From positions 1-32,653 of the forward strand of contig JANNWY010000251.1 of NCBI GenBank assembly GCA_031409335.1: a stretch of DNA of 32,653 nucleotides, read 5' to 3'. Positions within the stretch are counted from its first letter, which is position 1; each line of letters opens with the position of its first letter. The DNA comes from Chthoniobacteraceae bacterium. GTDB lineage: Bacteria > Verrucomicrobiota > Verrucomicrobiia > Chthoniobacterales > Chthoniobacteraceae. Below the pieces are notes generated by a model. It ran no database searches. It saw only the letters and a program-made list of their open reading frames with translations, and was not told where the DNA came from. The position numbers and the translations under genes were made by a program. This document shows, piece after piece, positions 1-21,700 of this stretch.

Positions 1-108
1 GAGATCTTCGCCTATATCGAATCTTACTACAACACCCATCGGAAACATTCCTCCTTGGGCTACCTTTCACCAGCTCAATTCGAGTCAAATCTCTCCCAAA
101 ACATCTAA
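1..108 (+). CDS. IS3-family transposase (OrfB integrase core), 3' end only
   Basis: Frame 1 reads EIFAYIESYYNTHRKHSSLGYLSPAQFESNLSQNI*, matching the IS3 OrfB C-terminal pattern (YIE.FYN..R.HSSLGY.SP..FE). Truncated by the window start. Confidence 0.9.
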   Translation, partial: EIFAYIESYYNTHRKHSSLGYLSPAQFESNLSQNI

Positions 109-140
109 CTAAAAATGGTCCAGAAATCGGTTGCACCTCA
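1..140 (+). mobile_element. IS3-family insertion sequence, right end
   Basis: Transposase stop at 106-108 is followed by ...TGGTCCAGAAATCGGTTGCACCTCA ending in CA at 140, as expected for an IS3 terminal inverted repeat (5'-TG...CA-3'). AT-richer than the flank. Confidence 0.8.
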
Positions 141-145
141 AGCGC

Positions 146-1210
146 GTTTTCCCCACCCGCGTGGGGATGGTCCGCGGCGGCAACGCCAGATTGAATCGTT
201 GTGGTAGTTTTCCCCACCCGCGTAGGGATGGTCCGTGGCGGCTGCGATTCCATCAGAAAAGCCAGTGGTTTTCCCCACCCGCGTGGGGATGGTCCGTGGC
301 GGCTGCGATTCCATCAGAAAAGCCAGTGGTTTTCCCCACCCGCGTGGGGATGGTCCGTCTTTCACCCGCGCATCCGCCGCCGCCTCGGCGTTTTCCCCAC
401 CCGCGTGGGGATGGTCCGCGGAGTTCGAGTCGCGCCAAAAGGGCTAACGCGTTTTCCCCACCCGCGTGGGGATGGTCCGCCGCTTCGAGCGCACTCATGC
501 CGCCTCCTTCGGTTTTCCCCACCCGCGTGGGGATGGTCCGCCTTCTTCAGGCCACGTGATCGTCGCGTTCCAGTTTTCCCTCCCGCGTGGGGATGGTCCG
601 GCCGCGCTCATTGATGACGCGGACAAGCGCGAGTTTTCCCCACCCGCGTGGGGATGGTCCGCGGCTTGCGGAGCTGGGTTACGATCCGGCGATGTTTTCC
701 CCACCCGCGTGGGGATGGTCCGCTCGTCGGGCCCGCTCCCGTATTGTTTCATCCGTTTTCCCCACCCGCGTGGGGATGGTCCGCGGCTGGTGCATCTCGG
801 CCCGCGCACGGTGATGTTTTCCCCACCCGCGTGGGGATGGTCCGCAAACAGCGATTTCAAAGGCCACGGAATGCCAGTTTTCCCCACCCGCGTGGGGATG
901 GTCCGCGTTAAAGGAGCCCAATGCTCGCACATTCTGTGTTTTCCCCACCCGCGTGGGGATGGTCCGACCTGCTCGATGGCTGCGTTACGGTTGGCCTCGT
1001 TTTCCCCACCCGCGGGGGGATGGTCCGCGCATTGCGTATCGCGGCCTGAGCGAGGATGTGTTTTCCCCACCCGCGTGGGGATGGTCCGTCGAATCCTGAG
1101 ACGCCGATGGAATGGCTATCGTTTTCCCCACCCGCGTGGGGATGGTCCGCTGTTCCGGCGTGTCGCTCTTGATGTCAGCAAGTTTTCCCCACCCGCGCGG
1201 AGATCCTCTG
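146..1210 (+). CRISPR. CRISPR array, type I-E-like 29-bp repeat GTTTTCCCCACCCGCGTGGGGATGGTCCG; 18 repeats, 17 spacers of 32 bp
   Basis: Repeats start at 146, 207, 268, 329, 390, 451, 512, 573 (28-bp variant), 633, 694, 755, 816, 877, 938, 999, 1060, 1121 and 1182 (degenerate terminal). 61-bp period, internal TCCCCAC/GTGGGGA hairpin, and resemblance to the E. coli I-E repeat. The degenerate repeat on the right places the leader on the left. Confidence 0.98.
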
Positions 1211-1373
1211 CGAAGGCGCGAGCAAGACGAATGAAGAGCGCCTGACGGGCCGTTCGCCTGGCAACAAGATCGTGATTATCAAAGGCGGCGCGCGGCACAT
1301 CGGCGAAGTCTTGGACGTGCAGATCGAGCGTTCGAGCGGCTTCAGCCTCTACGGAAACCCGGCGGTAATGTAG
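1200..1373 (+). pseudogene. miaB: 3' fragment (TRAM domain) of tRNA methylthiotransferase MiaB
   Basis: Reads EILCEGASKTNEERLTGRSPGNKIVIIKGGARHIGEVLDVQIERSSGFSLYGNPAVM*, like the MiaB C-terminus (EILxEG.SK....L.GR...NK.V......IG...DV.I......SL.G). No start codon or upstream radical-SAM part; it begins inside the last CRISPR repeat. Confidence 0.8.
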
Positions 1374-1379
1374 GAACGG

Positions 1380-1417
1380 GAAACGAAACAATCACGGCGC
1401 GGAAACATTTCGGTAAC
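1380..1417 (+). promoter_or_regulatory. Possible OmpR/PhoB-family binding site (11-bp-period direct repeats)
   Basis: GAAAC (1380), ATCAC (1391), GAAAC (1402), GTAAC (1413) at exact 11-bp spacing, just upstream of the ATG at 1440. Confidence 0.3.
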
Positions 1418-1439
1418 ACCCTGCCGGGATGCTGGCGGC

Positions 1440-2108
1440 ATGAAAACCATGCCGCTCCCGCCCCGCGCGTTCACCCTCATCGAACTCCTCGTGGTGATCT
1501 CCGTCATCGCGATTCTCATGGCCCTGCTTTTCCCCGCGCTCAACAGCGTGCGTGAGCAGATGCGACGCGAACAGGCGCACAACGATGTGCTGAGCATCGT
1601 GAACGCGGTAAAAAACTATCAGACAGAATACGGAAAGCTCCCGCGCGTGACGCCAGCATCTGCCAACGCGCCGGACGGCGATGTGCTCGTGGGAGACGCG
1701 GACGCGAAAGCCGCGATCGACAACAGCGCGCTCATGGACACGCTCCGCGCCATCGCGCGCGGCCTCAATGAGCGCCACGCTTTGAACCCGAGGCAGATCA
1801 TTTTCCTCGAAGGCAAAATCGCGCGCGCCGCCCGCGCGCCGCGAGCTGGCTTTGCTGACAACGCGGAGTCAGAGAAGCGCGGGTGCTTCTACGATCCCTG
1901 GGGAAAACAATACTGCGTGGTGATGGACACCGACTACGGCAACTCGATCGACGTCGCCGCGCAATACAGCGACTTCAGCGGCGAAAGCGCGCCACGCGTG
2001 ACCGTCGGCGCTTTCGCGATGGGAAAAGACGGCACGCTGGGCACCAAAGGCGACGGCAAGTTTCGGAAAGGCGACGCGATCTCGGACGATGTGCTCTCGT
2101 GGCGGTAA
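1440..2108 (+). CDS. Prepilin-type N-terminal cleavage/methylation domain protein (pseudopilin-like)
   Basis: RA|FTLIELLVVISVIAILMALLFPA N-methyl motif, then Y..EYG.LP and a later DPWG..Y motif. Confidence 0.9.
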   Translation: MKTMPLPPRAFTLIELLVVISVIAILMALLFPALNSVREQMRREQAHNDVLSIVNAVKNYQTEYGKLPRVTPASANAPDGDVLVGDADAKAAIDNSALMDTLRAIARGLNERHALNPRQIIFLEGKIARAARAPRAGFADNAESEKRGCFYDPWGKQYCVVMDTDYGNSIDVAAQYSDFSGESAPRVTVGAFAMGKDGTLGTKGDGKFRKGDAISDDVLSWR

Positions 2109-5388: not shown

Positions 5389-8300
5389 TTATTTCGCGGG
5401 TTTCACCTCGACGTCCGGCAATCCCGGCCATGTCTTTCGCAGCGGGCCGTCACCCACGTAGGCGGCCCATTCGGTGTCGATTAAATTTCTGTTTGCGCGT
5501 TCGCGGCAGACGATTTTCAGTGCGTCGGGATGGAGTTCCCATTTGCGCAATTCACCGTCCCAACTTCCCGTGTATAGCCGTCGGCTGTCCGCGCTGAACG
5601 CGAGCGCGCGCACGGAATCGGTGTGCGCGGTGAGCCGCCCGGCGGGTTGCTTCGATTCCACATCCCAGAGGATCACCGAATGATCGTCGCTCCCCGACGC
5701 GAGCAATTTCCCATCCGGGCTGAACGCGGCGATCACCACCGGCGCGTGGTGTCCCGCGAGCGGCGGGGAAAGGCGCATCCGTGTTTCCGTATCCCAAATG
5801 ATCAGCGTGTTGTCGCCGCTCGTGGTCGCGAACATTTTCCCATCCGGGCTGAAGGCGACGCTGCGAATCTTGCCGGTGTGATCCTCGGGAAACTCCAGCA
5901 TTTGCGGCTTCTGATTTTTCACGACGCTCCAAATCACCGTCCGCTCGCCATCGCCACCCGTCACGAGCCGGTTGCCATCCGGGGTGAATTCGAGCGCGAA
6001 AAGTTCGTCGTCTTCTGGATTGGTGAGGGGATTGGCAAAAAGGAGTTCACCGCTCGCGACATCCCACACGAAAACTTTCGCGGGAACGGCGCTCACGCCG
6101 ACCGCGAGCTTCGCACCATCGCGACTCAGGCTGATCGTGGAGATCTTCCGCGCCGCGTCCTCCGCTTTCAGCGCGAATTTTCCGACGACCGTCGGCAAGC
6201 CATCCGCGCCGCTTTTTTCCAAATCGTGAATCCGCACGCCGCCATCCGGCGTGGTCGCGGCGAGCCGCCGGTTGTCTCTGCTGAAAGTGACGACGGGCAC
6301 CCACTTCGCGGCATCGTCCACGCGCTTGCGCGCGGCATCGGGGGGCAGCATTTCCGCGCGCACCTGCGCCTCGGCGCGCTTCATCGCTTCCGCGAACGTC
6401 AGCATTTGCTCCGAGGACGCTGGCCACTTCGTGAGGTCGCGCGTTTTCAGGACGACGCTGCCGCCGGCAAAGCCATTCGCCTCGCGTGTGCCATCCGCGC
6501 TGAAGGCGATGCTGAACGACGACTCGGATGCCTCCGCGCGACCCATCTCCGCCACATGAAACCATGTGTCCCACAGGATCGCCCGCCGATCCGCGCCGCC
6601 GGAAATCACGGTCTGCTTATCCGCGCTGAATGCGACGCTCAACACGCGGCCCACGTGGCCGGTGAAAGACGGACCCACGGTTTCCATCGACGGCACTTTC
6701 CACAGCCGCAGCGTCCCATCGAAACTCGACGTGACGAGCCGCGTCTCGTCCGGCCCGATGCCCGTGGTGCCCGGCGAAAACGCGAGCCCGCTCACGCCGC
6801 CATCGTGCATGCCAAATGCCGCGACGTTAAAGACCTCGCCCGGCTCCATCAGATTATACAAATCCACCGCTCCCGAACTACGGCCCGCGGCCAGGAATTT
6901 TCCATCCGCGCTGATCGCAAGACAGCGCACCGCGCTCACCGGCTGGTCTTTCCCCGCATCTTTCGGATGCTTTGCGGAAAAGGTCCACGGCTCGGCCGGC
7001 CACGCGTCGCCCTTCCGACTCAGGATCACGATGCGGCCATCCCGGCAACCCACGAAAAGCCGCGCGCCGGGAAGATCAAATGCCACCCCGCGAATCTCGA
7101 CATTCAACGACGGCAGCGCCTGGATCTTGCCGGTCGCGATATCCCAAAGATTGATTTGCCCCTTGCTGTCCGCGGACGCGAGCAGCGCGGATTTTCCACT
7201 GAACGCAACGGCCCACACGTCGCCCCGATGCGCGAATTCGGGCGGCAGGCGCTTCAACTCACCACTGCCCATATCGCGCACGACGATCGTCTGATCCTTG
7301 CTGCTCACGGCCATGTAGCGGTCATCGCCGCTGAAGGTGATCGTGCGCACCGCGTTCGCCACGAGGCCGGGCAGCCGCTCGACGATGCGGTGCGTCTTCA
7401 CGTCCCACACGAGCACCAGCCCGGTGTAGTCGCCGGTCACCACGCGCTTCTTGTCATGGCTGAAAGCGACCGCGCCAATCGACGACGGGGAACCGTGCAG
7501 ATAGGTCGTGAGCCGGGGATTGTGATACGCGGACGTGAGCAGGCTGCCGAGCGCGTCGGGCAATTGGCCGAGCCCGTTTTCCTCGGTGATGAGCTGCCCC
7601 TGCGTGGCCAGCAGCAGCGACACGTCGAGCCGCTCGTCCCGCATCTGGAATGCCCGCGCCGCAATGCTGCGCGCGTTCGCGATGTTGCGCTCGCGCGTCG
7701 CCTTGTCCCGCTGCTCTGTCGCCAGGTTGCGCTCGTTCTTCGCCATCTCCGCCTGGCCCAGCGCGTACCACGTCAGCCACGCGAAACCGCCCATCACCAC
7801 GGCCATCACGCACGCCGCCCAAAACGCCCATTTGTTTTTCCGCGCGTCGTGATTGCGCTGGCAGACTTCCAAAAAATCGCGCTCCGTCTGCGTCAGTTCG
7901 TCCGCGTGCTCGTCCGCCCACGCCTGCGCCTGCTTCCGCGCATCGCCGCGCAGACACAGCGCATCCGCGCGGCCCTGATTATTCCACACCGCCGCCTGGT
8001 GCTGGAGAACGCTGAGATTCCGCTCGCGCCACGCCGCGTTGTCCGCGCGGATTGGCTTCACCATGCGATCGTGCGCCAGCTCCAGCCACGTCACGCCGCG
8101 GCGCTCTTCACCGCGGATGAGATGCACATCGACGAGCTTCTGGATCGCCGTCTCATTCACTTCGCGGCTGTTCTCCGAGCCCACCATCACCTGGCTGCGG
8201 ATCCCGCCCTCCGTGATTAGCCGCCGGTCGAACCACTCGCGCAACACCCGCTCCGGCAGCTTGCTCGCCGCCGCGATCTGCGCCACCCGCTCCGCGTAAT

Positions 8301-9198
8301 AATCCGCCAGCGCCGAATCCACCGTCCCCGTCCCGACGATGTGCCCCGCCGTGATTTCCGTCACGCCGGCATCCAGCTTTTCCCAAAGCCGGTAACACAC
8401 CACCTGAAGCTGCACCGGCTCGATGTAAGGCCCGAGTTCCTTCTTCGCTTCACCGGTTGGCTCCTGCACCACCACCTCGCGTAAATCATCCACCAGCTTC
8501 GTCGTCGCCTCTTCCGTGAAAGTGACGCCGCATTCCTTCGCCGGCCGCTGCACGGCGACGCGCGCACTTTCCACACCCAGCAGATCGAGCCGGAACGTCG
8601 ATTTCAACCGCGTCGGAATCGGCCTCAGAAAAGGATCCAGCGCCGCCACGTATTCCTCGCGCATCGCAAACAGCGCCCACCGATTCAGGTCGCGCAGCGC
8701 CTCGCCGACTTGATTGAAAAAATCCATCTTCTGCTCCCGATGCGTCGGATCGAGCGTCAGGATTTCCTCGAACTGATCGAAAATCAGAAACGTCCCCTCG
8801 TCCCGTCCGCTTGCCGCCTCACGACGATTCAGATACTCCGCAAAAGACAACGTCGCGAGTTCCTCCGGCGCGATCGCCTGCTCCGCCGGCACGCCCTGCT
8901 CCAGCGAGACCAGCGCGCTCATCACGTAAAGATTGCGCGGACGCACTCCGCCACCCGCATCGCGATTCACGCGGATCACCGGCAGCACATGGAATTCCTC
9001 CTTCTCCAACTCCGGAATCAATCCTGCCTGAATCAGCGAAGTCTTCCCCGCGCCCGACGGCGAATACAGCAGCACGATCCGCTCGGCGATCAGCAGATCG
9101 AGCAACTGCCGCGCCTCCCGATCCCGCCCGTAAATGCGCTCGCCATACCGCAGCGACCGCGGGCCGACGTAGGGATTTTGCGACGCGGATTTGCTCAC
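5389..9198 (-). CDS. nSTAND1-type P-loop NTPase + TM helix + WD40 repeat protein (NLR-like)
   Basis: NPYVGPRSL...YGRD.E, Walker A YSPSGAGKTS, Walker B FLIFDQFEE, AMREEY, LELAHD; TM WAFWAACVMAVVMGGFAWLTWYA; more than a dozen repeats of the GH...V..VAFSPDG..LASGS.D..V.LWD type. GTG start overlaps the upstream TGA. Confidence 0.9.
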   Translation of the reverse strand: MSKSASQNPYVGPRSLRYGERIYGRDREARQLLDLLIAERIVLLYSPSGAGKTSLIQAGLIPELEKEEFHVLPVIRVNRDAGGGVRPRNLYVMSALVSLEQGVPAEQAIAPEELATLSFAEYLNRREAASGRDEGTFLIFDQFEEILTLDPTHREQKMDFFNQVGEALRDLNRWALFAMREEYVAALDPFLRPIPTRLKSTFRLDLLGVESARVAVQRPAKECGVTFTEEATTKLVDDLREVVVQEPTGEAKKELGPYIEPVQLQVVCYRLWEKLDAGVTEITAGHIVGTGTVDSALADYYAERVAQIAAASKLPERVLREWFDRRLITEGGIRSQVMVGSENSREVNETAIQKLVDVHLIRGEERRGVTWLELAHDRMVKPIRADNAAWRERNLSVLQHQAAVWNNQGRADALCLRGDARKQAQAWADEHADELTQTERDFLEVCQRNHDARKNKWAFWAACVMAVVMGGFAWLTWYALGQAEMAKNERNLATEQRDKATRERNIANARSIAARAFQMRDERLDVSLLLATQGQLITEENGLGQLPDALGSLLTSAYHNPRLTTYLHGSPSSIGAVAFSHDKKRVVTGDYTGLVLVWDVKTHRIVERLPGLVANAVRTITFSGDDRYMAVSSKDQTIVVRDMGSGELKRLPPEFAHRGDVWAVAFSGKSALLASADSKGQINLWDIATGKIQALPSLNVEIRGVAFDLPGARLFVGCRDGRIVILSRKGDAWPAEPWTFSAKHPKDAGKDQPVSAVRCLAISADGKFLAAGRSSGAVDLYNLMEPGEVFNVAAFGMHDGGVSGLAFSPGTTGIGPDETRLVTSSFDGTLRLWKVPSMETVGPSFTGHVGRVLSVAFSADKQTVISGGADRRAILWDTWFHVAEMGRAEASESSFSIAFSADGTREANGFAGGSVVLKTRDLTKWPASSEQMLTFAEAMKRAEAQVRAEMLPPDAARKRVDDAAKWVPVVTFSRDNRRLAATTPDGGVRIHDLEKSGADGLPTVVGKFALKAEDAARKISTISLSRDGAKLAVGVSAVPAKVFVWDVASGELLFANPLTNPEDDELFALEFTPDGNRLVTGGDGERTVIWSVVKNQKPQMLEFPEDHTGKIRSVAFSPDGKMFATTSGDNTLIIWDTETRMRLSPPLAGHHAPVVIAAFSPDGKLLASGSDDHSVILWDVESKQPAGRLTAHTDSVRALAFSADSRRLYTGSWDGELRKWELHPDALKIVCRERANRNLIDTEWAAYVGDGPLRKTWPGLPDVEVKPAK

Positions 9199-11246
9199 GA
9201 CGTTTTATTCATCTGCCGTTGCAGCTCTTTCAGAAAATCCTCCGCGCGGCCCCAGTAGATGCTGATTTTCGTGTTGGAAAAGTAACGCTCCAAGTATTGC
9301 CGGGCGCGTTTCGGGTCGATGGTGCGGTCTTGCTCGGGGTCGATTTGCACGGCGACGTGGGCGTATTTTCCGAGGAGGGCGCGGCCTTCGCGGCCTTTGA
9401 TGCTGCTGAAGAAAACGCGGAAATCCCAATCGCGAAGCTGGAAGCCGAGGAAGAGCAGCGCCGTGTTCGTGAGCTTCGCGCGGACGCTCGTGGGGATGAT
9501 GTCGTTGTTGCGCGTGACGTCGATGAGGTAGTCGAAGTAGTTGTCCTGCGTGAGCACGATCGACTCGGGGTCGCGCAGGTGGCCGAAGAGGTGATAGACG
9601 AGCGGCGCGTCCTTGGTCGGCTCGAAGCTCGGCTGCTCGGCGGCGGTCTCGTTGCCATCGTCATCGCGGCGTGGGCAGAGCGCGACGGCGGGCGTTTTTT
9701 TTGCGGCGGTGAGCGCGTCGGCGAGGAGGTTGTCGGGATTCGTCGTGAGATACACGGGGAGATCGAGACTCGCGAGGATCGCGTGCGGTTCGTCGGGCTC
9801 CTGTTCGCGCCGGATCGCGCCCGCGGTGGAAATGAGCTGCTGGATGTCGCCACTCGCGACTTCTTCGGAAATCTCGGGATACTGCCGCAGCACACCGGCG
9901 CGGAGTGCGTCGCAAAATTCATCGCGCACGAAGGTCTCCTCGCCCTGATCGACCGCGATGTATTGCGCGACGAGCGGCAGCTCCTCGCACTCGTCTCCCT
10001 CCATCGGGTAGCGATATTTTTTCGCCCACTGCCGCGCGATTTCGCGGAAGGAGCCGACGAGCGATTCCAGCAAACCGGAGCCGAGGATCGGCGTGCAGCG
10101 GCCTTTGCGAATGTTGCTCACCAGCGAAGGCCAGCGATCGAAACCCGGCTGCTCGCCGGTGAATCCCGGCGTGTACCACCAGATGCGCCCGCGTTTCAGC
10201 GACATGAAAAGCACGGGCATCCACCAATCCGGCCGCGTCCGCACCGCGCCGCGCGCCGCCGCCATCGCGCGGTCGATCTGGCCGTCCTCCTGCAGCTCCT
10301 TGAAAAAGACCGGCAAAAACGCGCCCGCGGTTTGCATGGTGACGCTGCCCTGCATGGCGACCACCGCCGGAATCCCCGCCTCCGCGAGCCGCGGCCCGAG
10401 CGCGGCCAGCACGCCGTCATCCCCGCTCGCGCCGGTGCCCGCGCTTTCACAAGAAGCGAGCACGACAAGCCGCGGACGCTGCTTCAGTTCGCTCAACCGC
10501 GTCGCGAGATCGGCCCCCTGCACGATGGCCGCGCCGCCCGCGTCGTCTTCCAAATATAGCAGCGGTTTTCCGTCGATGAACGCGCCGTGGCAAACCAGCA
10601 GCAGGATGTCGTAACCCTCGCGCAGTTTGCCGAGGATGTTATTCAAAGTCGCGGTGCCGCCGCCGCCGAGCACGGTCGTGGGGATCGTGCCGAGCCCGGT
10701 CGTCGCGCGCTGCGTTTCCCCCGCGACATCCACCGGCGCGAGCGCGCGTCCGCCGGGTTTGTAATTGCCGACATTCACTGGACTCGCGATCGCCACCAGC
10801 GCGCGCATCTCGTCTTTCGCGCGCAAATTCACCGGCCGCCAGTCGTCGCGGCTGATGAAGCGCGAGATCAGCATCCGCTCGCGCGTCGCGAGCCATTCGC
10901 CGGAATCCACATCGCACAACGTTTCCCAAACCAGGCTGTGCAAATCCGCCGCGCTTTTATCCACCAAGAGCCGCAGCCGGATCGGCATATCGAGCGACTC
11001 CGCCATCACACAGCCTTTTTCAAAAGCCGACTTGATCTTCGGATCGGCGAACAGCGACTGCGAAAGCAGCCGCCCGTATTCCCTCCGATCGCCGCTCACC
11101 GCGCGCAGCGCATCGAGATCAAACGCCGCGAGCCCGAGCACCGGTGCCACATCGGATTCGCTGTCCGAACGATCGAAACGGAGAGCCACCCGCACCGTGG
11201 CGTCGATTCGCTGGAGACTGATTTCGAGTTCGACAAATTGAGTCAT
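9195..11246 (-). CDS. CHAT (caspase-like) protease fused to a C-terminal SIR2-like (SIR2_2) domain
   Basis: CHAT: IRLRL...LH.L.WE.L, LLLVCHG (His), LVVLASCES (Cys), IPAVVAMQ, DWWMPVLF. SIR2-like: CTPILGSGL, YLTTNPDNLL, LVYHLFG, SIVLTQDNY, LLFLGFQLRDWDF. Confidence 0.85.
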   Translation of the reverse strand: MTQFVELEISLQRIDATVRVALRFDRSDSESDVAPVLGLAAFDLDALRAVSGDRREYGRLLSQSLFADPKIKSAFEKGCVMAESLDMPIRLRLLVDKSAADLHSLVWETLCDVDSGEWLATRERMLISRFISRDDWRPVNLRAKDEMRALVAIASPVNVGNYKPGGRALAPVDVAGETQRATTGLGTIPTTVLGGGGTATLNNILGKLREGYDILLLVCHGAFIDGKPLLYLEDDAGGAAIVQGADLATRLSELKQRPRLVVLASCESAGTGASGDDGVLAALGPRLAEAGIPAVVAMQGSVTMQTAGAFLPVFFKELQEDGQIDRAMAAARGAVRTRPDWWMPVLFMSLKRGRIWWYTPGFTGEQPGFDRWPSLVSNIRKGRCTPILGSGLLESLVGSFREIARQWAKKYRYPMEGDECEELPLVAQYIAVDQGEETFVRDEFCDALRAGVLRQYPEISEEVASGDIQQLISTAGAIRREQEPDEPHAILASLDLPVYLTTNPDNLLADALTAAKKTPAVALCPRRDDDGNETAAEQPSFEPTKDAPLVYHLFGHLRDPESIVLTQDNYFDYLIDVTRNNDIIPTSVRAKLTNTALLFLGFQLRDWDFRVFFSSIKGREGRALLGKYAHVAVQIDPEQDRTIDPKRARQYLERYFSNTKISIYWGRAEDFLKELQRQMNKTS

Positions 11247-18799: not shown

Positions 18800-21700
18800 A
18801 TGAAATTCACCGCTCTCCCTGCTTTCATCCTTACCGGCCTGATTTCCCACGCCCTCGCTGGCCCGCTCAAAGAGGCAAAAATCAATCAAATCGTCAACGA
18901 CGTGAAAGTGGTCGAGCCGCGCAAGGGCGCGCACCCGGCGACGCTTCAGGAATTGATCAAGGATGACCGCGGCGTCGCCACCGGGATCCAGTCGCGCGCA
19001 GAGCTGCTCTTTCAAGACAACACGCTCACGCGCCTCGGCGCGGAGACGTATTTCACGTTCCAACCCGGCACGCGGAATATCGACCTCGATCGCGGCTCGA
19101 TCCTGCTCCAAGTGCCGAAAAATCTCGGCGGCGCGCGCATCCGCGCGGCATCCGTCACGGCGTCAATCACGGGCACGACCATCATGGTCGAGCATCTGCC
19201 GGGGAAAAGCGTGAAGGTGGCCGTGCTGGAAGGCAGCCTGAACATCGGCCTGGACCGCCGGCCCGGCGAGACGGTGACGCTGCGGGCTGGGAAAATGGTG
19301 ACGCTCGATCCCAATGCGAAGGATCTGCCAAAGCCCGTGGACGTGAATCTGCGCAAGCTCGTGCTCACCTCGCCGCTCGTCGATCCGACCCTGTTCAAAG
19401 GCAAATCAAAGGCCCGCATTGCCGCGCTCCCGAGCATGGGTTTGATCGAGAAAGAGATCGCCGCGCAAATTGCGACGGTCCCCGCCGCGGACACGGCGAT
19501 GGCCGTTTTCGAGACGACCGCAGTCGCGGAAGATGCCATCAAACCGGAGACCGCGGCACCAGCGTTTGACGCCGAAAAACCAGCCACGAGCGTCGCGAAA
19601 ACAGAACTTCCGCTGCCCGCGAGCGAGCTGACACCGGAACTGGATGACTCGGACCCGCAAGCACCGGGAAAAACTCCGGCCAACCGGGGAGGTTTGACCG
19701 GACAAACGGGCGGCGTTTTAACCACCGCCACGGTGACGCCGACGGAATCTCTCGCGAACACTTCCGCAAACGCGGATACCGCGACCGGCAACGAAACGAC
19801 CAACGGCGCGCTCACCCGCACCGCGCCCGTGAGGCCCTCGGGAATCGCGACGCTGACACCACCAACGACGCCGCCAACGACGCCGCCAACGACGCCACCA
19901 ACGACGCCGCCAACAACGCCGCCAACGACGCCGCCAACAACGCCGCCGACAACGCCGCCAACAACGCCGCCAACAACGCCGCCGACGCCTACCGCGACGA
20001 ATCCCGCATTCATCACCGCGCCCAGTCCCTACGTGATCTCAAACGCAACCACGATCACGACTGGCAATCAGACGATCGCGACCAGTGGCGCGGTGGATGC
20101 GGGTGGCCTGTTCCAATCGGCGGCGGTGAACGGTTCGCCTTCCGCATTTCTTTTCGACACGCCGTCGGCCTTCGACGCGGCGAGCGGGATTGATTCCAAA
20201 TTTGGCGTGATGACCGGCGGCCCCGCGCCCGCGAACGGCGTGGCGGTCTATCGCTTTGCGGGCCTCGATATTCAGGGCGGCCCCACGACTGCCATCACTG
20301 GCGGCCTGACCGACCTCGCCCTCGTCTCGCAGTCCGGGATCACCTCCGGTTCCAGCGGTAGCGCGTGGACCCTGGACTCACTGCACTCGCTCTTTTTTGG
20401 AACCGTGAACGGACCGATTGTGATCGGCAACGAATTAAAAAAGACCTCGCTCATGTCGGGCTTCAAATATCTCCAAATGAATGCCCGTGGCAGCAGCGGC
20501 ACCGTGACGCTCGACAGCAACATCACCGTCCCATTTGCGAACCTCTACGTGGATGCGGAGCAAGGCATCACAGTTTCCAGCAACGGAAAAATCACCGCTT
20601 TCGAAACGGTGTTCAACACGCCCGGCACGATCGAAATCAACACGAGCCCGCTGGTCGCGACATTGAAGCTCAATGCAGGAACCGGCATCCGATCCACCGT
20701 CCCACTCGGAGCCGGGCTCGTCGAGATGACTGCACCGAGGCTCGAAACCACGGGCAACCTCTCGGCCGCAACCGGCTTCCTCAACATCGGCGCAGGCGGC
20801 ATCCAGGCGGGTGGCTCGACGCTGATGGGATTCGATCGCATCGACGTCGCGGGAAATGTGGAGTCCGGCACCGTCGGCGTAAGATACGCGCTCAATATTG
20901 GAGGCACATTTGCGACGCAGGCAGTGAACGGAGCCGTGAGACTGACAGCGAGCACGGTCGCGATCGGTGGCGGAATCGATCTAACGGCAGCGAACAACCA
21001 AGCCGGCGGCGCGCTCACCATCGACGCGACCGATGTGGACCTGAGCCCGGCGGGAATCAATGGCATCAAAGCTGACGGAGCTGACAGTCCACTCGCGTCC
21101 GGGGCCGGAGGCGACGGCGGCACGGTGAACCTGGGCACTTCGGCAAAACCGATTAAGAATTCCATCACGGTCTCGCGACCCATGTCCGCGACCACCGGGG
21201 CGAACGCCACGGGCGTGCTGACTGGCGGCACTGGCGGCACCGTGAACCTCGTCGCGACCGGACCGATCGCGGTGAATTCGACGGTGAAAGTCTCCGACAG
21301 CGCTCCGACCCGCGCGAGTAGGAACGGCGGAAACATCACTCTCGACAGCCGCAAAATCACCGGCACCGCCATCGCGATCAACAACTCCGGCCAGCTCCTC
21401 TCGCTCTTGAGCAGCGCTTCGCCCGGTTCGGGCGGAAACATCACCTTCGTCTCGTCCGGCGGCGACATCCTCGTCAATGGCGGCACCGTGCAGGCGGACA
21501 AAGGGACGGTCGATATGCGCAACAACGGCGCCGGCAATGTCGCGCTCACCAACGCGACCATCCGCGGCGATGTCGTGAAAATCGGCGCGCTCGGCGCGAA
21601 CGGCCAGCTCCTCATCGGCGGCGGCACGATCAGCGCCGACACGTCGCTGAAACTTTACGGCGGCACGAGCAATGGGCAGGTGCGCTTCACCGATGACGTG

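Follow-up and report, generated by a model that had tools for sequence, protein, structure and literature searches.

The window, a stretch of 32,653 nucleotides, is contig C251 of genome G000, a draft assembly of 326 contigs with 3% estimated contamination. Near its left end lies a CRISPR array whose last repeat runs directly into the end of a miaB gene, which is followed by a prepilin gene (Table 1).

Table 1. Features around the junction of the array and the miaB fragment (window coordinates)
Feature	Position	Strand	Basis or remark
Right end of multi-copy insertion sequence	1..140	+	identical 140 nt at ends of contigs C136, C152 and C154
Trailer part of type I-E CRISPR array	146..1149	+	17 full repeats (29 nt, period 61), 32-nt spacers
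Last (leader-distal) spacer	1150..1181	+	
Hybrid terminal repeat	1182..1210	+	alignment of repeat consensus with miaB
Displaced 3′ end of miaB allele (last 59 codons and stop, TRAM domain)	1194..1373	+	PF01938, TIGR01574
Intergenic stretch of displaced allele	1374..1439	+	unrelated to the sequence after intact miaB on C301
Gene with prepilin-type N-terminal methylation signal, downstream neighbour of displaced allele	1440..2108	+	PF07963, TIGR01710/TIGR02532

Within the array, the repeat at 573 lacks one base (a 28-nt variant) and carries one further change. The consecutive spacers at 236–267 and 297–328 are identical. A search for self-targeting spacers returned no full-length match in G000 outside the array, and an Rfam search gave 0 families at the gathering score. 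Apart from the window, the repeat occurs on only one of the 326 contigs, C301, in the same orientation and on the same strand as the miaB copies. The order on that contig is intact miaB, cas3, cse1, cse2, cas6e, cas7, cas5, a vapB/PIN pair, cas1e and cas2e, followed at the contig end by an AT-rich leader and the first four repeats. All eight cas genes match type I-E models, and the 29-nt repeats form hairpins and alternate with 32-nt spacers.

The array is interrupted, and the assembly broken, by an insertion sequence (IS) of about 1.25 kb that is present in at least 4 copies and is presumably IS3-like. It sits inside an array spacer, 5 nt before a repeat (window 1–145). A 1248-nt contig of run X1 ends in the same IS sequence, and two other copies are flanked by 3-bp target duplications. 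We infer that C301 and C251 are neighbours across this element, over which no contig bridges the link. The simplest order across the IS would then be miaB, cas genes, leader, array, IS, array, half repeat, miaB end and prepilin gene, so that the window would hold the trailer end of the array.

The hybrid repeat is real. From 1182 it follows the consensus over its first 16 nt (1182–1197) and then diverges, just as the earlier note had described, with 24 of 29 positions matching in all. Four of the five mismatches (repeat positions 20, 24, 25 and 28) are the bases of the genome's own miaB, and the fifth, at window 1198, agrees with neither the repeat nor the own miaB. Thus, positions 1182–1193 belong to the repeat only and those from 1201 onwards to miaB only, with a shared microhomology at 1194–1200 in between. 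Inside it, 1194–1197 are exact, 1198 is private, and 1199–1200 equal both the repeat and the miaB of the congeners. Single Logan contigs of run X1 (1121–2151) and run X2 (1122–2142) cross the joint with 0 differences. As these runs are perhaps the source samples, they rule out a peculiarity of one assembly and do not represent independent strains; the misassembly that the earlier note wished to see checked is countered at the contig level. The predicted hairpin is weaker in the hybrid repeat than in the consensus (−3.5 versus −12.4 kcal/mol). A normal hairpin is probably missing on the 3′ side of the last spacer, which, given this folding prediction, may be processed poorly.

Downstream of the joint, the frame 1191–1373 reads TRAEILCEG...GNPAVM-stop. 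The diverged bases had been taken for the codons T-R-A-E-I-L-C of miaB, and profile searches with this frame support this identity: the fragment matches the TRAM domain PF01938 (E 8e-9) and positions 382–435 of 437 of the MiaB model TIGR01574 (E 4.8e-7, far under the cut-off for a full MiaB). The T codon (1191–1193), however, derives from the repeat, as miaB has Q there; homology begins at 1194, and the A codon is V in miaB. The full gene, whose presence in the same genome the earlier note proposed to verify, is found intact on C301 (18540–19907, 455 aa, TIGR01574 458 bits). It is the only other miaB end in G000, and cas3 starts 51 bp past its stop. The miaB function is predicted to rest on this copy.

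Compared across 180 nt, the fragment has an identity of 85.6% with the own miaB, 84.4% with that of congener G001 and 87.2% with that of G002; the own intact gene shares 86.7% and 88.3% with the same two congeners. The fragment is as distant from the intact copy of its own genome as another species is. The identity of 85.6%, together with the fact that 16 of the 26 differences from the own miaB fall at third positions, indicates that the fragment is another lineage's allele and not a fresh duplicate.

The fragment has about five private amino-acid changes at conserved sites (V2A, F29I, E30K, F40L and L59M, numbered along the fragment). In runs X4, X5 and X6 there are alleles about 95% like it that retain the conserved F, E, F and L at four of the five; runs X5 and X6 cover small shares of the stretch and were used for named contigs only. 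One X5 contig (1306–1419, 6 differences, depth of about 3) joins a miaB end to the 1374–1439 stretch. It carries two further non-synonymous differences and is too short to show whether its miaB is intact. We read the fragment as a probable decaying relic of a once-functional allele that formerly stood ahead of the prepilin gene. A stand-alone expressed TRAM protein was considered and rejected: there is no in-frame start from the upstream stop to codon 27, and conserved residues are lost.

Among relatives, no intact miaB was found beside this prepilin gene, an arrangement that the earlier note had suggested looking for. A prepilin match was present in 3 of 4 congeners, and the closest ortholog (G002, 70%) is cut by a contig end. 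Four metagenome prepilin loci are distant (47–62%).

Other features were observed further along the window. An imperfect inverted-repeat element of very high contig depth (2110–2240), located between the prepilin and HI0933-like genes, is probably a dispersed REP- or MITE-like repeat. On the minus strand, at 5392–11246, the gene of a CHAT and SIR2-like protein (683 aa) lies directly upstream of that of an nSTAND1 NTPase with WD40 repeats (1269 aa); the two look like a defence or signalling pair. Finally, a 1046-aa FecR-domain gene contains a tract of about 12 copies of a 12-nt tandem repeat (19832–20011).

At the register of the joint, the miaB genes of congeners G001 and G002 have 7 exact bases, and 10 of 11, in common with the repeat. 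Among 1339 miaB positions, this exact run ranks first in G001 and in the joint top 2, tied with one other, in G002; by matches over 29 nt (16/29), the site is in the top 3–4. Random array–miaB joints reach 7 exact bases with a frequency of 0.0006–0.0008 and 10 of 11 with one of about 0.0002, where the 7-base figure uses the congeners as stand-ins for the unseen parent. The window itself has only 4 exact shared bases (chance about 0.024), and the own miaB shares 5. We infer that the unseen parent had all 7 nt of the match and that a single T-to-C change occurred later at 1198, which is plausible because the fragment is decaying. The match is of HFIR length (3–10 bp) and present at one joint. 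Only 4 of the first 11 repeat bases are matched by miaB, and this means that miaB is not a whole pseudo-repeat. The claim that the miaB coding sequence resembles the repeat therefore holds for the repeat's 3′ part alone, and with 7 exact bases only in the congeners.

In our opinion, two related bacteria probably recombined with a homologous anchor, and the hybrid would be the illegitimate joint at which the exchange was closed by microhomology (HFIR-like). One parent would have carried miaB-cas-CRISPR and the other miaB-prepilin; neither arrangement turned up in the relatives searched, which counts against this reading. On one side, a crossover would have taken place in shared homologous DNA; on the other, the exchange would have been completed where a CRISPR repeat and miaB codons 397–399 share a short GC-rich stretch. 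The repeat would have played no CRISPR-specific role and would have supplied microhomology only, and the relic would have decayed after joining. The cas side would be the incoming DNA, while a mirror case, with the prepilin side coming into a resident array, would give the same joint.

The product consists of intact miaB (allele 1), cas3-cse1-cse2-cas6-cas7-cas5-vapBC-cas1-cas2, the leader, the array, half a repeat, the last 180 nt of miaB allele 2 and the prepilin gene, so two distinct miaB alleles bracket the module. A joint at a repeat/miaB microhomology with a displaced miaB 3′ end was one of the options in the earlier note, and it is the one that the data bear out, including the intact miaB directly upstream of the cas locus. 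A search for the homologous crossover (informative sites, codon style) gave no significant break; the best one was near nt 233 of the intact miaB, with a permutation p of 0.056. Natural transformation, with the RecA-dependent uptake that belongs to HFIR, may have been the vehicle: G000 has ComEC and DprA, one each, but both also give matches in 10–11 of 14 control genomes.

The distribution of the cas genes was also studied. The cas3 of this clade is found in 6 of 150 family genomes and in 0 of 4 congeners (71–90% complete), a patchy pattern that fits horizontal gain, and the DNA behind miaB differs in each congener examined. The hybrid repeat pattern had 0 matches in a genome contig collection from which the own genome may be absent. 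A gene end duplicated from upstream of cas3 was seen in 0 of 4 related loci with the trailer in view (L069, L073, L080 and L086).

It is worth stressing that the same anatomy, that is an intact gene, an insert and a displaced end, recurs in G000 at lepA, argF, glgE, pdhC (twice), mqnA and cas1. These clear cases are HMM-named genes only, from 21 rows hand-picked from screens; three further scar genes we take, from their motifs, to be priA, prfC and hisI. When 3685 gene tails were searched in G000, 27 same-contig, same-strand downstream copies were obtained. A second screen was limited to 3452 genes that have no close paralog and returned 94 same-strand matches nearby (22 3′-downstream, 20 5′-upstream, 16 5′-downstream, 5 3′-upstream and 31 internal). 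Many of the screen matches are repeated domains or paralogs, and the counts are for G000 alone. The inspected relics range from 58 to 508 nt and are of both types, 3′-downstream and 5′-upstream.

Two of these scars mirror the hybrid, with no repeat involved. On C325, the order is lepA, cargo, an argF fragment fused to a lepA fragment, cargo and argF; two alternative cargoes thus stand in tandem. The argF 3′ fragment (minus strand) and the lepA 3′ fragment lie at L058:8674–8933 (G000:C325:61673–61932) and meet at 6 shared GC-rich bases (chance 0.003). The lepA relic, 194 nt long and 93% identical, has 13 synonymous and 0 non-synonymous codon changes. The other scar is inside the cas operon itself, after its cas5, at L001:17167–17430 (G000:C301:27167–27430). 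There, 35 codons from the C-terminal end of a foreign cas5 allele are fused to a 5′ fragment of cas1 (the first 54 codons, 93.8% to intact cas1), which lies 885 bp upstream of the intact cas1, with the vapB/PIN pair in between. This fusion is a second recombination scar and brought the TA pair into the operon. From their sequence arrangement, both joints appear to be products of unequal exchange between two allelic loci. An automatic search for joints with both parents readable yielded, among 40 candidates, lepA/argF only, besides repeats and paralogous domains.

Two more loci of G000 deserve mention. At pdhC (L060:1009–18030, G000:C212), displaced 3′ ends of 63 and 58 nt lie 0.7 and 15.7 kb downstream, suggesting serial insertions, and the nearer insert encodes a Uma2 putative endonuclease. 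A second cas1-like gene, presumably type II-like (G000:C252:172–1906), has a 60-nt 5′ fragment 794 bp upstream and a small two-gene insert between.

Outside G000, a genome of another genus, G014, has an intact miaB, a 0.5-kb insert and a displaced, frameshifted miaB end (L041:2060–2140, G014:C505), with no CRISPR. The breakpoint is about 80 nt further 3′ than that of G000, which means that the insertion site is not fixed. Two TRAM matches were found in 4 of 150 other family genomes (G098, G124, G130 and G158), all of them uninformative pieces at contig edges; this search overlooked the short relic of G014, which was found by blastn.

The earlier note had also raised an array born or seeded at miaB, off-target integration by Cas1-Cas2 and an integrase island; none of the three is supported by what is seen at the locus. 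Cas1-Cas2 joins DNA at the ends of a repeat and leaves a duplicated target of repeat length. Here, the joint falls mid-repeat, miaB fits the first repeat bases poorly, and at the miaB-cas3 side the intact miaB has neither a second repeat-like copy nor a reciprocal half repeat. In other Verrucomicrobia, this cas3 clade likewise comes with near-identical repeats (e.g., L066, L072–L077, L080 and L081), amid unrelated neighbours and with no miaB nearby, and the same anatomy occurs at genes without any repeat. Array birth and Cas1-Cas2 seeding are not supported, because this repeat family occurs widely and the likeness of miaB is confined to the 3′ part of the repeat; nor is the locus a fresh snapshot, as the fragment carries private changes at conserved sites. 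The idea that off-target integration at a repeat-like miaB site seeded the array or inserted the module is thus barely credible, even though the site is among the 3–4 most repeat-like in miaB and, in the accessible text of PMC7054753 (citing Nivala 2018), such integration is reported in E. coli. As for an island, 0 of the 18 PF00589 and 3 PF00239 matches (tyrosine integrase and resolvase) lie on C301, C251 or the scar inserts, with the IS gap out of view, and the G014 breakpoint differs. The upstream neighbours of cas3 all differ among 23 GTDB loci and 6 family loci (from the 150 genomes screened), and miaB adjoins cas3 in none of them, so a fixed attachment site at miaB was not reused there.

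Other histories would lead to a similar structure. A larger island may have entered at miaB, by integrase or recombination, and a microhomology-mediated deletion between a repeat and a longer displaced end may have followed. The same microhomology joint would be expected, the fragment is old enough to have decayed, and, according to the part of PMC12839519 that we could consult, arrays lose DNA through repeat misalignment. We nevertheless find this unlikely: C301 and C251 hold no integrase remnant (the IS gap is unseen), the 180-nt length is within the range of the G000 relics and needs no trimming, and viral contigs contain no close miaB end, only 1 distant match (32%). Alternatively, a segment from the miaB site to the repeat may have been excised by microhomology in the donor as a circle and integrated by one crossover within the 180 nt of miaB. 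Such a circle gives the same gene order, makes an integrase unnecessary and accords with the position of the module between two copies of one 180-nt segment. It requires two rare steps, however, and predicts reciprocal mosaics in the 180 nt, whereas the X4 allele tracks the fragment over 1220–1329 with 5 differences and no switch. Since the lepA/argF and cas1/cas5 joints directly fit unequal recombination between two allelic loci, we judge the circle quite improbable. An artefact, either a chimeric assembly or two organisms in one bin giving an intact gene and a fragment, is conceivable in a draft with some estimated contamination in which C301 and C251 are unbridged. Contigs from two runs agree fully with the window across the joint, the private decay changes are absent from functional alleles in four other runs, and both array halves have one repeat and one orientation; an artefact is therefore very improbable.

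Homology-anchored recombination closed at a microhomology, which we favour, makes the hybrid one old scar, specific to this lineage, of a process already known, and no new machinery is revealed. It does give a base-by-base view of how a complete CRISPR-Cas unit may arrive without a mobile element, through a housekeeping-gene anchor and a few shared repeat bases. Most joints of this kind cannot be read, since the arriving DNA past the breakpoint has gone; in this one, that sequence survives in the array consensus. Displaced gene ends and 3′-degenerate terminal repeats are already known, and the one special point is that the joint can be read thanks to the repeat. The locus is also a warning that gene fusion can lie behind a terminal repeat that diverges. 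One could go further and propose that CRISPR repeats, being many-copy, GC-rich and short, are recurrent landing points for illegitimate joints of integrase-free CRISPR-Cas units moving between species, and that a sizeable share of 3′-degenerate terminal repeats are scars fused to host genes and not point-mutated repeats. We regard this generalisation as rather unlikely, and the four related loci with a visible trailer, none of which had such a duplicated gene end, speak against it so far; if true, such scars could date and place the arrival of each CRISPR-Cas system. In a literature search, mostly of open-access titles, nothing linked HFIR or microhomology with CRISPR terminal repeats, and miaB was not named as a CRISPR integration site.

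Several known systems resemble this locus in part. In the work of Nivala et al. of 2018, neo-CRISPR loci reportedly arose from off-target Cas1-Cas2 integration, with a repeat-length duplication of the chromosomal target and a repeat derived from the site. The miaB locus likewise has a repeat-like chromosomal site adjoining array sequence; it differs in that no chromosomal target is duplicated, the repeat belongs to a widespread family not copied from the miaB site, and the joint is mid-repeat. Islands in the 3′ ends of the tRNA-modification genes trmE and dusA, as described in the available sections of PMC8409611, also have an intact gene upstream and a displaced 3′ end downstream. Here, in contrast, there is no integrase and no short att core common to both ends, the breakpoint varies between lineages, and G000 has 5′ relics too. 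Degenerate terminal repeats, whose differences are treated as accumulated mutations in the text seen of Touchon and Rocha 2010 (PMC2886076) and of PMC12839519, share with ours a leader-distal repeat that departs from the consensus in its 3′ part, but in the present case a recombination joint accounts for 4 of the 5 differences, which are coding sequence of foreign origin. The HGT hotspots that Oliveira et al. 2017 (PMC5635113, in the portion available) describe as integrase-free and as lying between core genes agree with our locus in having accessory genes behind a core gene and no mobility genes. They are ascribed there to a double homologous crossover (replacement) with no displaced gene end, whereas here one side is illegitimate and the outcome additive.

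HFIR and our locus have a single short-match joint in common, as well as the lack of an integrase and the former end of a gene pushed behind the new DNA; the one homologous side of HFIR would have its counterpart here too. As a rule, HFIR removes the recipient's sequence past the anchor; in this respect our locus departs from it, as a gene end was retained. In the text available, HFIR was described in three competent species with 3–10 bp segments (PMC6382021); PMC5361080 reports that it is rare in the laboratory and puts it forward as the source of the displaced 3′ ends of T6SS clusters in Vibrio. The present case differs from these in that the anchor is a housekeeping gene and the cargo a CRISPR-Cas unit of 11 kb or more, with the anchor crossover and the vehicle being our reconstruction. 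Its joint, moreover, falls inside a CRISPR repeat, so that the parent sequence on the cargo side is known from the array consensus.
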